In this document: piece after piece, positions 22,802 through 28,811 of the stretch
How positions within the stretch are numbered: position 1 is the first letter of the stretch
Layout: each line of letters begins with the position of its first letter
Sequence record: SRR22947725_1805
Direction: 5' to 3' (one strand)
Length of the DNA: 64,000 nucleotides
Program-made: the position numbers and the translations under genes
Notes under the pieces: generated by a model
The model's database searches: none
What the model was told of the DNA's origin: nothing
What the model saw: the letters and a program-made list of their open reading frames with translations, nothing else

Positions 22802-24016
22802 TTAGGGCTCGCTAGCGATGGTGGCGATAGGAACCGTGTCCGGAATGGGGGAGGGATCTTTTCCTCGAAGGTCAGGGTGGGCCTTCACAAAAACACTGGC
22901 CACGATGGTGCCGAGAAGCGCGAAACACGCTGCTGCAAGGAAACCCCCGAGCGATCCGAAACCATCGATGGCAAACCCCGCGATAGCGGAACCCAGTGCC
23001 GCGCCCACCAGTTGGCCCGAACCCATCCAGCCATAAGCCTCGGCAGTTTCGGAGAACTTCACACTCGAAGACACGATCGCGAACATCACTGCTAGAGCGG
23101 GGGCGATTCCTGCTCCAGCGATGAGCAGTGCGAAGGAGATCCACCAGAAGTCCAGGATGAGGCCCGCCAGCGCAATTCCGATGAAGACAACGGCCATCCT
23201 GGTCGCTAGCGCCCAGGGCCCAATGGGAAGTCCCCCCAGCGCTAGCCCGCCGATGATGGAGCCAAAGGCCCAAATAGCCAAGACGTACCCTGCCTGAGCT
23301 CCCTGCTCACCAAAGACCGATACAACGGCGACCTCGACGGCAGCGGCCGCGCCGATGAGAAGGAATCCGACCACGGTGGCAAGCAGAACCGCTGGCTTGT
23401 TCAACACCACGCCCAGTTTGCTTCGACTAGGGGGGATGGTGACCGTTCCAACCTCGCGGCAGGAAAGGAACCACGCTCCGCCCCCGATAAGGAAAACCCC
23501 GGCGACCATGATGGCCCAGGTGGTGGAAATTTGTGTGGCAACAAAGGTGGTGATCACCGGCCCCGCAATCCAGATGATTTCTTGGGCTGAAGCGTCGAGG
23601 GAAAATAGCGGGGTGAGTTGTTTGGAATTCACCATGGTGGGGTAGATCGTGCGAACTGCGGGCTGGATGGGCGGGGTCGAAAGACCGCCGATAAAGCCGA
23701 TGGCGATATATCCACCGAGGGGGAACTGACCAAACGCAATGCCTGCCATGGCCAGCAAAGATATGACGATCGTGAGGGTGATGACCGGCCGCATGGCCCA
23801 GTAGCCCATCCAGCGCGATGTGAGGGGGCCTGCCAGTGCTTGCCCCAGGCTGGTGGCGGCGAGCACGAGGCCTGCGAGGCCATAAGAATCAAAGATGTGC
23901 TCGATGTGGAGAAGGTAGGCCAGGGACAGCATCCCGGAGGGAAGCCTGGCGGTGAGCTGTGCGGAAATAATCGCGGCGACACCCCGAGTTTTCAACAGGT
24001 CAGCATACTTTTTCAC
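22802..24016 (-). CDS. MFS transporter
   Basis: About 12 TM; ARLP, GP..SRW, QEIIW..GP. Confidence 0.88.
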   Translation of the reverse strand: MKKYADLLKTRGVAAIISAQLTARLPSGMLSLAYLLHIEHIFDSYGLAGLVLAATSLGQALAGPLTSRWMGYWAMRPVITLTIVISLLAMAGIAFGQFPLGGYIAIGFIGGLSTPPIQPAVRTIYPTMVNSKQLTPLFSLDASAQEIIWIAGPVITTFVATQISTTWAIMVAGVFLIGGGAWFLSCREVGTVTIPPSRSKLGVVLNKPAVLLATVVGFLLIGAAAAVEVAVVSVFGEQGAQAGYVLAIWAFGSIIGGLALGGLPIGPWALATRMAVVFIGIALAGLILDFWWISFALLIAGAGIAPALAVMFAIVSSSVKFSETAEAYGWMGSGQLVGAALGSAIAGFAIDGFGSLGGFLAAACFALLGTIVASVFVKAHPDLRGKDPSPIPDTVPIATIASEP

Positions 24017-24143: not shown

Positions 24144-24191
24144 CCACAAGATATGGTGTCTAGGATTTGTCAGGACCGGCATATATAGTGG
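24144..24191. promoter_or_regulatory. Tandem NrdR boxes
   Basis: CCACAAGATATGGTGT (24144-24159) and CCGGCATATATAGTGG (24176-24191), starts 32 bp apart, fit acaCwAtATaTwGtg. Confidence 0.8.
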
Positions 24192-24298: not shown

Positions 24299-26761
24299 AT
24301 GAGCATCATGGTGGTGAAGCGCAACGGTGAGCGAGAGCCCTACGACGCTAACAAAATAAACTTGGCCATCGAGCGCGTGGCGGAAGGTCTGGAAGACTCC
24401 ATTGCCTGGGTGACCCAGATCGCCAGCGAGCTGGAACTGACACTTTTCGATGGCATCACTACCCAGCAGCTCGACGAGGCGGTCATTCAGGTCGCTCTGC
24501 AGAACGTCAAGGATGACCCTGCTTTCGATGTTGTTGCAGCCCGCCTGCTGGTGAAGACCATCTACAAGAGTGTCCTCGGCGACTACACCTCCCCCGAAGA
24601 GCTCAAAGCCCTGCACGTTCAGCACTTTGAAGAAAACGTGAGGCGCGGGGTTGAGGAAGGTCTGCTGGACGAGCGTCTCGTCCAGATGTTTGATTTCGAC
24701 ACCCTCGCAGCGGCCCTGGAGCCCAGCCGTGATGACCTCTTCAAGTACATCGGTGTTGTCACCCTCAACAACCGCTACGGCGTTAAAGGCCGCAACGGTG
24801 ACCCCCTAGAGGTTCCCCAGTACTTCTGGATGCGGATCGCCATGGGCCTGTCTTTGAACGAAAAAGACCCCACCAGGCACGCGCTGACATTTTACGAAAA
24901 AATGTCGAAGCTCGAATATTTGGCAGCCGGTTCCACCCTGGTTAACGGTGGCACCAGCTACCCCCAGCTTGCCAACTGCTTCGTTATGGAAATGCAGGAC
25001 GACATTGAGCACATCGCGAAGACCACTCGCGATGTCATGTGGCTGACCAAGGGCACCGGTGGGATCGGGCTGGCCGTGACCAAGTTGCGCGCGCAAGGTT
25101 CCCCCATCCGCTCCAACAACACCAGCTCGACCGGCCCCATCCCCTTCATGCACACCATTGACTCGGTGCTCCGTGCCGTGAGCCGTGGCGGCAAGAAGTT
25201 TGGAGCACTGTGCTTCTACATGGAGAACTGGCACATGGATTTCCCCGAGTTCCTCGACCTTCGCGCGAACTCTGGAGATCCTTACCGTCGCACCCGCACG
25301 GCCAACACCGCCGTGTGGATTTCTGATGAATTTATGAAGCGCGTCGAAAACGATGAGCCCTGGTATCTCTTTGACCCCCTCGAGGTCGCCGACCTCAACG
25401 AGCTCTATGGCTCGGCTTTCTCCAAGCGCTATGCGGAATATGTCGAAATGGCAGAAGCCGGCAAGCTCGGCATGTTCAAGAAAATGGGCGCCAAGGAGCA
25501 GTTCAAAGCCATCCTCGTTTCTCTGCAGGGCTCCAGCCACCCGTGGCTGACCTGGAAAGACACGATCAACAACCGTGCCATCAACAACAACTCCGGCACC
25601 ATCCACCTCTCCAACCTCTGTACGGAGATCTGCTTGCCGCAAGACGTGGATAACGTCTCGGTCTGTAACCTCGCTTCCATCAACCTCTCCCAGCACGTGG
25701 TGGATGGCAAGATGGATTGGGTCAAAATCGAAGAGAGCGCTCGCGTTGCGGTCCGCCAGCTCGACAACCTGATCGACATCACTCGTTCCAGCGTTGCCGA
25801 GGCCGACTACTCAAATGAACAAAACCGCGCCGTGGGTCTCGGCGTGATGGGCTTCACTGATGTGATCGAGCGCTTTGGCCACAGCTATGAAAGCGAAGAG
25901 GCCTACGACCTCATCGACGAAATCATGGAGCATGTGTCCTATGCGGCCATTGATGAGTCAGCGAACCTCGCTGTGGAGCGCGGTTCCTACGCCAACTTCG
26001 AAGGGTCACGCTGGTCGCAGGGGATTGTTCCTCTCGACACCGTGGACATGACCGAAGCGGACCGCGGCGTTCCCGTCGAGGTCAACCGGACTACGCGTCT
26101 GGACTGGGATCGTCTGCGGGAGAAAGTCAAGGGCGGTATGCGTAACGCCACCCTGATGGCTATCGCTCCAACAGCATCCATCGGGCTTGTTGCTGGAACA
26201 ACTCCGGGACTTGACCCACAGTTCTCTCAGATCTTTAGCCGCTCAACCAGCTCGGGTAAGTTCTTGGAAGTCAACCGCAACCTGGTGGAAGCACTCCGTG
26301 AGCGCGGCCTCTGGGAATCCACCCGTGAGGACATTCTTCGCAACCAGGGTGACATCCAGAACATCGACTCGATTCCCGCTGAAATGAAGGAAACCTTCAA
26401 AACCAGCTTCCAGCTCTCGCCCTACTCGTTCCTTGAGGTGGCAGCCAGAGCACAGAAATGGATTGACCAGGCGATCAGCCGCAACATGTATCTGGAAACC
26501 AGGGACATCGATGACCTGATGTCTATCTACACCGGCGCGTGGAAGCGCGGCGTGAAGACCACCTATTACCTGCACATGAAGCCCCGTCATACGGCAGAGC
26601 AGTCCACGGTAAAGGTCAACAAGTCAGAGCAGATCAACGGCTCGGGTTCCTCCGCCCCCAAGAAGGGCTTTGGATCCACGAGCGCTGCGGAGCCAGTTGC
26701 GGCAGCCGCAAGCCCGAAAAAGGGCTTCGGTTTCGGCGGCGCACCGAAGGCAGGCGAGTAA
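24299..26761 (+). CDS. nrdA: Ribonucleoside-diphosphate reductase alpha subunit with N-terminal ATP cone; lacks C-terminal CxxC
   Basis: VVKRNG ATP cone, ANCF, SNLCTEI, VCNLAS, APTASI, TTYY; ends KKGFGFGGAPKAGE with no Cys. Confidence 0.95.
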   Translation: MSIMVVKRNGEREPYDANKINLAIERVAEGLEDSIAWVTQIASELELTLFDGITTQQLDEAVIQVALQNVKDDPAFDVVAARLLVKTIYKSVLGDYTSPEELKALHVQHFEENVRRGVEEGLLDERLVQMFDFDTLAAALEPSRDDLFKYIGVVTLNNRYGVKGRNGDPLEVPQYFWMRIAMGLSLNEKDPTRHALTFYEKMSKLEYLAAGSTLVNGGTSYPQLANCFVMEMQDDIEHIAKTTRDVMWLTKGTGGIGLAVTKLRAQGSPIRSNNTSSTGPIPFMHTIDSVLRAVSRGGKKFGALCFYMENWHMDFPEFLDLRANSGDPYRRTRTANTAVWISDEFMKRVENDEPWYLFDPLEVADLNELYGSAFSKRYAEYVEMAEAGKLGMFKKMGAKEQFKAILVSLQGSSHPWLTWKDTINNRAINNNSGTIHLSNLCTEICLPQDVDNVSVCNLASINLSQHVVDGKMDWVKIEESARVAVRQLDNLIDITRSSVAEADYSNEQNRAVGLGVMGFTDVIERFGHSYESEEAYDLIDEIMEHVSYAAIDESANLAVERGSYANFEGSRWSQGIVPLDTVDMTEADRGVPVEVNRTTRLDWDRLREKVKGGMRNATLMAIAPTASIGLVAGTTPGLDPQFSQIFSRSTSSGKFLEVNRNLVEALRERGLWESTREDILRNQGDIQNIDSIPAEMKETFKTSFQLSPYSFLEVAARAQKWIDQAISRNMYLETRDIDDLMSIYTGAWKRGVKTTYYLHMKPRHTAEQSTVKVNKSEQINGSGSSAPKKGFGSTSAAEPVAAAASPKKGFGFGGAPKAGE

Positions 26762-26847
26762 TGGATTCGATGACCGACACCACCGTCGGGGGTTACTCCG
26801 TGCCGGTGGACCCCATGGATCTGTTGCAGTGCGACAGCTGCCAGTAA
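26761..26847 (+). CDS. 28-aa stand-alone peptide equivalent to the NrdA C-terminal redox tail (..PVDPMDLLQCDSCQ)
   Basis: ATG overlaps the nrdA stop (TAATG); ends CDSCQ-stop like NrdA CxxC tails; lies between nrdA and nrdB. Confidence 0.75.
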   Translation: MDSMTDTTVGGYSVPVDPMDLLQCDSCQ

Positions 26848-26890
26848 AACCTCAACAACTACCTCATCAACACGAACTAAGGAGCACGTA

Positions 26891-27874
26891 ATGGGCATTC
26901 TCGGACAGGGCGTACAAGAAGGACTTCTTCTCAAGCCCGTGAAATACCAGTGGGCCATGGACCTCTACGACCAGGCTGTTGCCAACACCTGGTTCCCCAA
27001 CGAAATTCAGTTGGGCGAGGACATCGCAGACTTCAAGAAGATGACGGATGAAGAACGTCACGCCATTACCTTCTTGATGAGCTACTTCAACCCCAGCGAG
27101 CTGTTGGTCAACAAGGCCCTCGCCTTCGGTGTCTACCCCTACATCAACGCTCCCGAGGCGCACCTCTACCTCGCCAAGCAGATGTGGGAAGAAGCCAACC
27201 ACTGCATGAGCTTCGAATATGTGCTGGAAACCTTCCCCATCGACCGCGAAAAGGCTTACGCCTCCCACGTTGATGTTCCTTCGATGGCCCGCAAGGAAGA
27301 CTTTGAGGTCAAGTTCATCCAGCGGATGACGGAAGAAACCATCGATATCACCACCACCGAAGGTAAGCAAGACTTCGTGCGCAACCTCGTTGCCTACAAC
27401 GTCATCCTCGAGGGCATCTGGTTCTACTCAGGCTTCATGGTTGCTCTGAGCTTCCGCCAGCGCAACCTGTTGCGTAACTTCGGATCCCTCGTGGACTGGA
27501 TTGTCCGGGACGAGAGCCTCCACTTGAAGTTTGGAATCAACCTGATTCTGACCGTTTTGGAAGAAAACCCCGATCTGCAGACTCCTGAGTTCGCAGCGGA
27601 AATTCGCCAGATGATCATTGACGCGGTGGAGATGGAAGAGGCGTACAACCACGACCTGCTTCCCGGTGGGATCCTCGGGCTGAACGCCAACTACATCAAC
27701 CAGTACGTGAAGTACTTGGCGGACCGTCGTTTGGAAGAGCTGGGCTTTGAGACCGAATACAACGTGTCGAACCCTGCAAAGTGGATGGCCACCGCGAACG
27801 ACACTTTGCAGTTGGTGAACTTCTTCGAATCCACTAACACTTCCTACGAAGTCAACGCGACTTCTTCGAAGTAG
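26891..27874 (+). CDS. nrdB: Ribonucleotide reductase beta subunit, class Ic (R2c)-like
   Basis: Ligand motifs SELLV, EEANH, LEGIWFYSGF, RDESLH, C-terminal NFFE..Y; Phe at the tyrosyl-radical site; AAGGAG SD. Confidence 0.93.
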   Translation: MGILGQGVQEGLLLKPVKYQWAMDLYDQAVANTWFPNEIQLGEDIADFKKMTDEERHAITFLMSYFNPSELLVNKALAFGVYPYINAPEAHLYLAKQMWEEANHCMSFEYVLETFPIDREKAYASHVDVPSMARKEDFEVKFIQRMTEETIDITTTEGKQDFVRNLVAYNVILEGIWFYSGFMVALSFRQRNLLRNFGSLVDWIVRDESLHLKFGINLILTVLEENPDLQTPEFAAEIRQMIIDAVEMEEAYNHDLLPGGILGLNANYINQYVKYLADRRLEELGFETEYNVSNPAKWMATANDTLQLVNFFESTNTSYEVNATSSK

Positions 27875-27898
27875 CATCAACAGCCACACCAGCGTTAG

Positions 27899-27939
27899 AG
27901 GAGGAGGCAGCACTGCTGTCTCCTCCTTCTGCTTTCTTT
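27899..27939 (+). terminator. Intrinsic terminator after nrdB
   Basis: AGGAGGAGGCAGC-ACT-GCTGTCTCCTCCT hairpin followed by a T-rich tail. Confidence 0.75.
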
Positions 27940-27968
27940 AGTGAATGAAAACGTGTGAGGATAGCCGT

Positions 27969-28811
27969 ATGAAAACTCCCGCAAACCAGCTGTGCTTAAC
28001 CCTCAACACTGGGGATCAGATCCCGCAACTCGGGCTTGGCGTATTCAAAGTTGACGATAACGAGTGTGAACGCGTCGTCCTCGATGCGCTTGAGGTCGGC
28101 TATCGCCACATCGACACCGCCATGATTTATCTCAACGAAGCAGCCGTTGGCCGCGCCATCGCTGCCAGTGGTATTCCACGCGAAGAACTCTTCGTCACCA
28201 CCAAGCTCTGGAACTCGGATCAGGGCAGCGACAGCGCGGCGAAGGCCCTAGACACCTCGCTGGAATTGCTCGGTCTTGACTACGTGGACCTCTACCTGAT
28301 TCACTGGCCAGCGCCTCTTCGGGAAAAGTATGTCGAGACCTGGTTGGACATGGAGAAGTTCGCCGCCCAGGGTCTCGCAAAAGCCGTAGGGGTCTCCAAC
28401 TTTGAACCTGAGCACTTAGAGAAAATTCTTGACGCCGGAAGCATCGTTCCCGCCATCAACCAGGTGGAACTCCACCCCGCTTTCCAACAGCGCAAGGTCC
28501 GCGCCTTTGGGGAAGAAAAAGGCATCCTGACCGAAGCCTGGGGCCCTCTGGGTCAGGGAAAATATGAGCTCGCCGAGTTGCCAGGATTGAACGAGATTGC
28601 CGCGAAGCATGACAAAACCATCCAACAGGTGGTGTTGCGCTGGCACCTGCAAGAAGGGGTAATCGTGTTCCCCAAGAGCGTTCGGAAAGAGCGGATGGCA
28701 GAAAACTTGGACGTCTTCAACTTTGCGTTGGATGCAGAAGATATGACGGCCATGGTTGCGATGGATTCGGGTCGGAGGGTTGGAACCCACCCCGATGATG
28801 GCAACTGGTAA
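27969..28811 (+). CDS. Aldo/keto reductase (DkgA-like)
   Basis: [37 protein letters not shown]. Confidence 0.93.

Follow-up and report, generated by a model that had tools for sequence, protein, structure and literature searches.

A 28-codon gene between nrdA and nrdB in Microbacteriaceae appears to encode the redox tail of a class I ribonucleotide reductase as a separate peptide

In a stretch of 64,000 nucleotides from sequence record SRR22947725_1805, which we refer to as the window, we found a class I ribonucleotide reductase (RNR) whose catalytic subunit, NrdA, lacks the redox cysteines of its C-terminus, and a separate open reading frame (ORF) of 28 codons, placed between nrdA and nrdB, that carries them. 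As judged from sequence comparison, this tail-peptide ORF is a real and conserved gene with its own start codon and ribosome-binding site, and its product, a free acidic dithiol peptide, probably re-reduces NrdA in trans as the functional redox tail. The locus is best read as a three-gene class I (Ic-type) RNR operon, nrdA-tail peptide-nrdB, and the split is not peculiar to this Pontimonas-like genome. The original prediction for this stretch had proposed a tail encoded as its own micro-protein, and its sequence statements (coordinates, motifs, the TAATG overlap, the 43-nucleotide gap before nrdB, the open -1 frame and the CCG AAA AAG run) were all confirmed. The features that the argument needs are as follows.

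24299..26761, + strand: nrdA, class I RNR catalytic (alpha) subunit, 820 amino acids (ORF, Pfam, NCBIfam)
26660..26731, + strand: residual basic NrdA tail with two KKGFG motifs, at 26660-26674 and 26717-26731 (conservation)
26746..26758, + strand: Shine-Dalgarno-like purine stretch GAAGGCAGGCGAG in the last nrdA codons, 3-15 nucleotides before the peptide ATG
26761..26847, + strand: tail-peptide gene, 28 codons plus TAA (ORF, conservation, purifying selection)

A Pfam scan of NrdA returns an ATP-cone (PF03477), the all-alpha Ribonuc_red_lgN domain (PF00317) and the Ribonuc_red_lgC barrel (PF02867), and with 1613 bits its score under the NCBIfam model NF005101 exceeds the cut-off of 988, which places the protein with the class I alpha-subunit equivalogs. 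This match spans model positions 1-801 of 822 and ends short of the C-terminus of the model. The catalytic motifs ANCF (225), NLCTE (439), VCNL (455) and TTYY (754) are all present, and for the catalytic cysteines, the glutamate and the YY radical-transfer pair we assume the roles that are established for class I RNRs. The only cysteines of NrdA are residues 227, 305, 441, 445 and 456, and zero lie beyond residue 456, which bears out the earlier claim that there is no cysteine after the core; the chain ends in ...KKGFGFGGAPKAGE, followed by a TAA stop codon at 26759-26761. The redox cysteine pair that marks the C-terminus of a class I alpha subunit is missing from this chain and sits on the next ORF instead. 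What remains of the NrdA tail is a basic stub with two conserved copies of a motif of the general form [KR][KR]GFG. Among 25 NrdAs of the family, G809, F810 and G811 are invariant and G790, F791 and G792 are at least 90% conserved, while the surrounding stretch is variable, and KKGFG motifs are present also in the NrdAs of relatives in which the tail is fused. The 63-residue stub carries a net charge of +4.9 versus -5.5 for the tail peptide, and it could possibly serve as a tether or docking element for the peptide.

The last base of the nrdA stop codon is the first base of the peptide ATG (26761-26763), forming the overlap TAATG. The product, MDSMTDTTVGGYSVPVDPMDLLQCDSCQ, ends in C-D-S-C-Q before a stop codon at 26845-26847, and 43 nucleotides separate this stop from the start of nrdB at 26891. 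Evidence for a ribosome-binding site comes from pairing the 17 nucleotides upstream of the peptide ATG with a generic anti-Shine-Dalgarno (anti-SD) probe, using windows inside the same nrdA genes as the null: the value for our locus, -9.1 kcal/mol, lies in the top 0.9% of same-length windows in its own nrdA, and across the family 20 of 25 loci fall in the top 5%, with a mean of -10.9 kcal/mol versus -3.1 for the null. For closer comparison, an NrdA search of 41 related genomes gave 18 same-genus loci that cover the junction, with NrdA identities of 86-100%; together with the window these make 19 genus loci, several of which are near-identical and hence not independent. The start codon of the peptide is ATG in all 19 genus ORFs. 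Over the last 19 codons the ratio of nonsynonymous to synonymous polymorphism (pN/pS) is 0.21 in these loci, and codon positions 1, 2 and 3 have 5, 6 and 13 variable columns, a pattern that marks the ORF as being under purifying selection. Twelve peptide positions are invariant in 30 sequences from many genera (Y12, V14, P15, D17, P18, M19, D20, L22, C24, S26, C27 and Q28), the length across the family is 25-30 residues, and the net charge ranges from -4.5 to -7.5 across the peptides compared. Neither a Pfam scan (E ≤0.01) nor an NCBIfam scan (E ≤1) of the peptide matched any family, and the 102-residue extended ORF of the tail frame likewise has no Pfam or NCBIfam family. In two database sequences, P0081 and P0151, the Y-x-VP(V)DPM block is partially duplicated internally, ahead of the C-x-x-C end.

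The origin of the peptide can be read from its relatives outside the family. Named records identify the family as Microbacteriaceae; the closest of them, with a 100% identical peptide, is a Pontimonas sp. metagenome-assembled genome (MAG), and other named carriers include Aurantimicrobium, Leifsonia, Gryllotalpicola, Galbitalea, Microcella, Humibacter, Cryobacterium, Salinibacterium and Gulosibacter, among others. A profile of the peptide was searched against 401 genomes of the order. In all 24 matched genomes outside the family the match lies at the end of frames of 873-1108 amino acids, and the 18 outside-family NrdAs that were inspected are all fused, ending in ...VACPVDPME[AR]LQCESCQ after a low-complexity linker of 191-248 residues. 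The 17 conserved C-terminal residues of the window peptide are those of this fused tail in sister families, and the peptide is, on this resemblance, homologous to the fused NrdA C-termini. Within the family, where 301 genomes of 101 genera were sampled, the profile gave 331 matches, of which 150 were listed, and matches occur in 145 of the genomes and 51 of the genera; roughly one in two of the Microbacteriaceae genera sampled thus has a separate tail peptide. The original prediction had suggested scoring relatives as fused or split, and among the junctions inspected all 18 genus relatives are split and fused forms were found outside the family only. All in-family nrdA junctions inspected (L045-L050, L070-L075, L088, L104 and L169-L173) are split or without an adjacent tail, with no exception. 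In a quick tree of a 272-residue core segment, a branch with a Shimodaira-Hasegawa-like approximate likelihood ratio (SH-aLRT) value of 100 separates the 18 fused sequences from the others, the outgroup branch being very long, and the data are compatible with one single fission event behind the split.

Candidates for fused forms within the family were rejected. Five frames of at least 800 residues (831-1475 amino acids) were found among the 150 matches listed, and all five are the -1 frame running open through nrdA by chance. The NrdA of genus g55 matches NF005101 up to position 822, and this genus proved to be split too. A tblastn search of the 28-residue peptide against 50,697 phage records gave no match at E ≤0.01, although with so short a query this does not imply absence.

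The distribution of the peptide follows that of the tail-less enzyme. When NrdA of the NF005101 type was called at E ≤1e-100 in the 301 family genomes, both the enzyme and the peptide were found in 140, NrdA without the peptide in 0, the peptide without this NrdA in 5 and neither in 156. The five peptide-only cases include two incomplete assemblies (71% and 88% complete), in neither of which an RNR gene was found, and one marginal match with an E value of 0.007. In a further case nrdA lies in five pieces in different frames (G311:C9:87655-89527, locus L180) with the peptide ORF just downstream, which points to a pseudogene or else to indel errors in an assembly of 9 contigs. The remaining genome, G231 (99% complete), has a stand-alone peptide in locus L177 (G231:C22), its ORF ending near locus position 1566 with ...VPVDPMDEMGCDSCQ; this copy could be a leftover, or the peptide could do more than serve this NrdA type. 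Each of five genomes that are 97-100% complete has one PF02867 gene, and zero class III RNR genes (PF13597) were found in these five. With a single catalytic subunit and no class III enzyme found, the tail-less NrdA must therefore work.

In the same five genomes the number of peptide genes is 1, 2, 2, 3 and 4, the extra copies being short ORFs far from nrdA, and 78 of the best 80 loci (L089-L168) in the scan of all species are such stand-alone copies. Most of them have a canonical AAGGAGG-like site 5-8 nucleotides before the ATG. The surroundings of one stand-alone set are conserved: two MaoC/FAS1-type dehydratase genes and a murB-like FAD-binding gene lie downstream, and in Pontimonas-like genomes the copy is preceded by a cysN/APS-kinase gene and followed by an APH-family gene. 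This APH-family neighbor was absent in the other genera and absent beside nrdA, in the few loci examined. A genome of 0.9 Mb has no peptide ORF next to nrdA and has kept a stand-alone copy alone, an arrangement that is difficult to account for without action of the peptide in trans. Examples of stand-alone copies are found at L086:3051-3125 (+), L087:2980-3063 (+) and L044:4685-4759 (-).

Support for the original proposal of a redox tail in the form of a separately encoded micro-protein comes from the variable geometry of the junction described below, from the conserved ATG and ribosome-binding site, from the low pN/pS and from the fused homologues in sister families, as well as from the co-occurrence with NrdA and from the finding of no other RNR in the five genomes checked. 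In the mechanism that we propose, the acidic peptide of 25-30 residues would be translated, in the window probably coupled to nrdA termination via TAATG, and would then enter the substrate pocket of NrdA, where its two cysteines would reduce the active-site disulfide (C227-C456 by homology). The oxidized peptide would leave as a disulfide and be re-reduced by thioredoxin or a similar redoxin, which amounts to the cycle of a tethered tail carried out in trans. Stand-alone paralogues with their strong ribosome-binding sites would add further peptide, and the basic KKGFG stub on NrdA may, speculatively, keep the acidic peptide nearby. Published work on other RNRs makes these steps plausible: a fused RNR tail is described as occupying the substrate pocket, competing with substrate and being re-reduced by thioredoxin (PMC11903788), dithiothreitol (DTT), a free dithiol, as reducing the RNR active site directly (PMC4078304), and NrdJb of split class II enzymes as providing NrdJa with thiol-disulfide exchange in trans (PMC4520616, PMC9669993).

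The geometry of the junction decides on two alternatives that the original prediction had itself raised, both of which would leave NrdA with a fused tail. A 1-nucleotide assembly or sequencing error that splits a fused gene has the -1 frame relation of the window in its favor and nothing more, and against it stands the split in all 18 genus relatives with sequence across the junction, which were assembled independently and differ in geometry, and in many other genera. All sampled words of 26300-27100 are contained in 13 DNA runs from 9 studies, and contigs of two DNA runs (X6 and X10) match the window over 26300-27013 with 0 differences and 0 gaps; no indel at the junction appeared in the 4 runs aligned, all of them as contigs and with DNA runs that are possibly the window's own source and so not fully independent. 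We consequently give an artefact no credence. Recoding, by a programmed frameshift, stop readthrough or ribosome hop, could be suspected from the window itself, where the tail frame is open from 26539 (the 102-residue ORF), 201 nucleotides upstream of the ATG, where the A-rich CCGAAAAAG (CCG AAA AAG) lies at 26714-26722, and where stop and start overlap. However, the event would have to differ among close relatives, since the tail frame relative to nrdA is -1 in 16 of the 19 genus loci, +1 in 1, and in 2 the same frame behind a TAG, which would call for readthrough plus 3 further codons; a frameshift at CCG AAA AAG, as originally considered, is inapplicable in the latter three. In 15 of the 19 loci the tail frame is closed at most 12 nucleotides upstream of the ATG, with no space for a shift site, so that the long open -1 frame in the window is a local accident, and the A-run is accounted for by the codons of the conserved KK in KKGFG. 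Neither a conserved shift site nor a fixed frame relation was found. The nrdA stop codon (TAA in 11, TGA in 5, TAG in 3) and the offset of the peptide ATG from the first base of the stop (+2 in 11, +8 in 5, +12 in 2, +13 in 1) vary likewise, and this variation of stop, spacing and frame therefore speaks against an assembly error and a programmed frameshift alike. Stand-alone copies with strong SD sites of their own have no fusion partner, and a conserved ATG and SD would be superfluous under recoding, which we regard as highly improbable. The same numbers qualify the earlier suggestion that the clean stop/start overlap reflects translational coupling: the overlap is present in the window and in 11 of the 19 loci, but the others are offset by +8 to +13, and since TAATG is not conserved, coupling by overlap is not essential.

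Two further alternatives accept the split and concern what the peptide does. The ORF might be a functionless, decaying remnant of a former tail, as its very short length could suggest, together with the absence of 7 of the 8 exact peptide sequences first looked up from a collection of 15 billion proteins; yet the twelve invariant positions and the low pN/pS, the conserved ATG and SD, the duplicated copies kept with canonical AAGGAGG sites and the retention of the ORF in half of the sampled genera make this barely credible. Alternatively, the peptide is real and has another main role, as a general dithiol or metal-binding micro-protein, as a regulator or inhibitor that plugs the RNR active site, or as the precursor of a modified peptide, and NrdA is reduced directly by a redoxin or a small thiol. 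Such a role would fit the 1-4 copies per genome, most of the high-scoring ones far from nrdA and in a conserved non-RNR neighborhood (dehydratases, murB-like), the copy that G231 retains without this NrdA type, and the APH-family gene after the stand-alone copy in Pontimonas-like genomes, and direct reduction of the active site is chemically possible in the manner of DTT (PMC4078304). Against this, the 17 conserved C-terminal residues are those of the fused NrdA tail, and the peptide is present in 140 of 140 genomes with the tail-less NrdA versus 5 of 161 without, of which two are incomplete with no RNR found, one has a fragmented nrdA and one is marginal. The APH-family neighbor is missing in other genera, and among the few loci examined no cluster of modifying enzymes next to the peptide is conserved. 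Another or a wider role of this kind is the strongest competitor of our reading, but we consider it unlikely.

The reading of the peptide as the redox tail of NrdA has its own difficulties, and the following points weigh against it. The 140 genomes are related, so that the independence of the co-occurrence is overstated; the peptide genes occur in several copies, some of them scattered among non-RNR genes; and the only RNR barrel gene of G231 is a 732-residue frame that is not of the NF005101 type. A free peptide forfeits the high local concentration that a tether provides, and it is possible that NrdA is reduced directly by a redoxin or a low-molecular-weight thiol. In favor of the reading, though weakly, a prediction of the NrdA-peptide complex scored 0.41 versus 0.00 for the best of 3 controls; no interface was reported, the runs agree in at least 64% of contacts, and the partner has a predicted local distance difference test (pLDDT) value of at least 51. 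In the calibration of this method, which included no protein below 30 residues, 51 of 78 solved complexes came up to the mark, as did 2 of 108 mismatched pairs; at scores of at most 0.60, however, it was reached by only 5 of the 78 solved complexes and by all 4 of the mismatches that passed (of 180).

Among known systems, the closest likeness is to the fused class I tail of the sister families (for example L017, 72% identical), with which the peptide has the terminus ...PVDPM[ED]xLQC[DE]SCQ in common. The catalytic core, the operon partner nrdB and presumably the tail-dithiol chemistry are the same. In the fused relatives, however, the tail is tethered by the linker of 191-248 low-complexity residues, whereas here the linker is gone, NrdA stops after the second KKGFG, and the tail has its own start codon, ribosome-binding site and extra gene copies. 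In placing the redox cysteines on a polypeptide of their own, with its gene next to that of the catalytic chain, the system resembles NrdJa/NrdJb of Pseudomonas aeruginosa and other gamma-proteobacteria, where the separate partner acts in trans (PMC4520616, PMC9669993). NrdJa/NrdJb is class II and depends on adenosylcobalamin (AdoCbl), in contrast to the class I enzyme with an nrdB partner described here, and compared with NrdJb the partner here is a peptide of 25-30 residues (28 in the window) with two cysteines, no Pfam or NCBIfam match and multiple, dispersed genes. Thioredoxin, glutaredoxin and NrdH are, like the peptide, small, separately encoded C-x-x-C electron carriers for RNR, but they have a thioredoxin fold of about 75-110 residues, for which a 28-residue peptide is too short, and their target is the tail and not, as a rule, the active site; the peptide, as a homologue of that tail, would be an extra link between redoxin and active site. 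The untethered dithiol DTT, which in RNR assays reduces the active-site disulfide (PMC4078304), does what we propose for the peptide, with the difference that the peptide is genetically encoded, has conserved residues for recognition and is presumably recycled enzymatically. We found no paper on a class I RNR tail encoded as its own gene, in a literature search that left subscription journals and supplements outside its scope. We class the system as the class I equivalent of the split class II RNR, set apart by a partner of micro-peptide size and by paralogues elsewhere in the genome. Its new element is that a genome has 1-4 peptide genes, some of which stand alone at a distance from nrdA and have strong ribosome-binding sites.

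The expectation that gene callers would miss the peptide ORF does not always hold. An exhaustive profile search of 1.84 billion proteins returned 449 cluster representatives at E ≤0.001, and the best 150 of these are all 24-151 residues long, with the motif at the C-terminus in nearly all; the ORF is therefore often called, frequently with an over-long start. Six of ten representatives looked up carry a name: three are "ribonucleotide-diphosphate reductase subunit beta" at NCBI, one further is labelled "subunit beta" in an NCBI MAG entry only, and the remaining two are "hypothetical protein". The label "subunit beta" is a misnomer for the tail peptide. One of the three, a 25-residue Clavibacter entry, is also named "Ribonucleotide reductase, alpha 2 subunit" in UniRef, and an annotator therefore saw the link to the alpha subunit. 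Misnamed database entries of 25-28 residues are P0012, P0041, P0074 and P0001.

The remainder of the transcription unit is made up of the following features.

26878..26884, + strand: Shine-Dalgarno sequence TAAGGAG of nrdB, 6 nucleotides before the ATG at 26891 (read from the sequence)
26891..27874, + strand: nrdB, radical-generating (beta) subunit, class Ic type (Pfam Ribonuc_red_sm, structure relatives)
27898..27928, + strand: terminator-like hairpin of 14 pairs that closes the nrdA-peptide-nrdB unit (consensus scan)

The best solved relatives of NrdB are 1syy and 4d8f (E about 3e-73), which we take to be the Chlamydia class Ic protein. The NrdB segment ...EEANHCMSF... aligns with ...EEAVHTHTF... 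of these structures, and DESLH pairs with their DETIH, so that the metal ligands are kept; NrdB is assigned to the class Ic type because a phenylalanine stands opposite phenylalanine at the position of the radical tyrosine. A Mn/Fe heterodinuclear cofactor is a further hallmark of class Ic beta subunits. A consensus scan between nrdA, the peptide ORF and nrdB found neither a promoter-like site nor a terminator-like site on the + strand, consensus matches of this kind carrying little weight. In contigs of two RNA libraries, a type of source that may include DNA, the sequence runs from nrdA through the peptide ORF into nrdB with 0 gaps, and these contigs have 7 substitutions upstream of the nrdB ATG (26891), all outside the peptide ORF. 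These observations are compatible with co-transcription of the three genes.

Around this unit, two partly palindromic 16-nucleotide elements lie upstream of nrdA, at about 24144-24159 and 24176-24191 (CCAC...GTGT; ...ATATATAGTGG). Their centers are about 32 nucleotides apart, which corresponds to the geometry of NrdR boxes given in PMC13584703, and translations of the region with these elements look conserved in other genera. A gene for a 404-residue membrane protein (22802-24016, -) is divergent from nrdA, and nrdB is followed by a gene of 288 codons (27945-28811, +) that looks aldo-keto-reductase-like by eye. In other genera (L045-L047) the operon is flanked by ORFs of like size and start sequence.

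The half of the RNR cycle in which the enzyme is re-reduced is difficult to approach by experiment, given a disordered tail that is anchored to a protein of about 90 kDa, and a natural free tail would permit titration, mutation, chemical labelling, trapping in the active site and direct measurement of the exchange with thioredoxin. The transition from fused to split, with loss of a linker of about 200 residues, also offers a clean case of gene fission for evolutionary study. More tentatively, and short of calling it probable, the peptide may represent a new kind of encoded, diffusible redox carrier, an unstructured acidic dithiol from 1-4 separately regulated genes that passes electrons from thioredoxin to the sole RNR of the cell. 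If so, the supply of peptide, besides the level of the enzyme, would set the rate of deoxynucleoside triphosphate (dNTP) synthesis, and the stand-alone copies may let the peptide serve other disulfide-forming enzymes.

For Microbacteriaceae the findings matter to annotation, as pipelines call such ORFs inconsistently and misname this one. That the peptide has several genes, each with its own expression, points to a so far unconsidered level at which dNTP supply may be controlled, and, if our reading of the tail peptide is true, an essential step in making DNA precursors can depend on an ORF of fewer than 30 codons.

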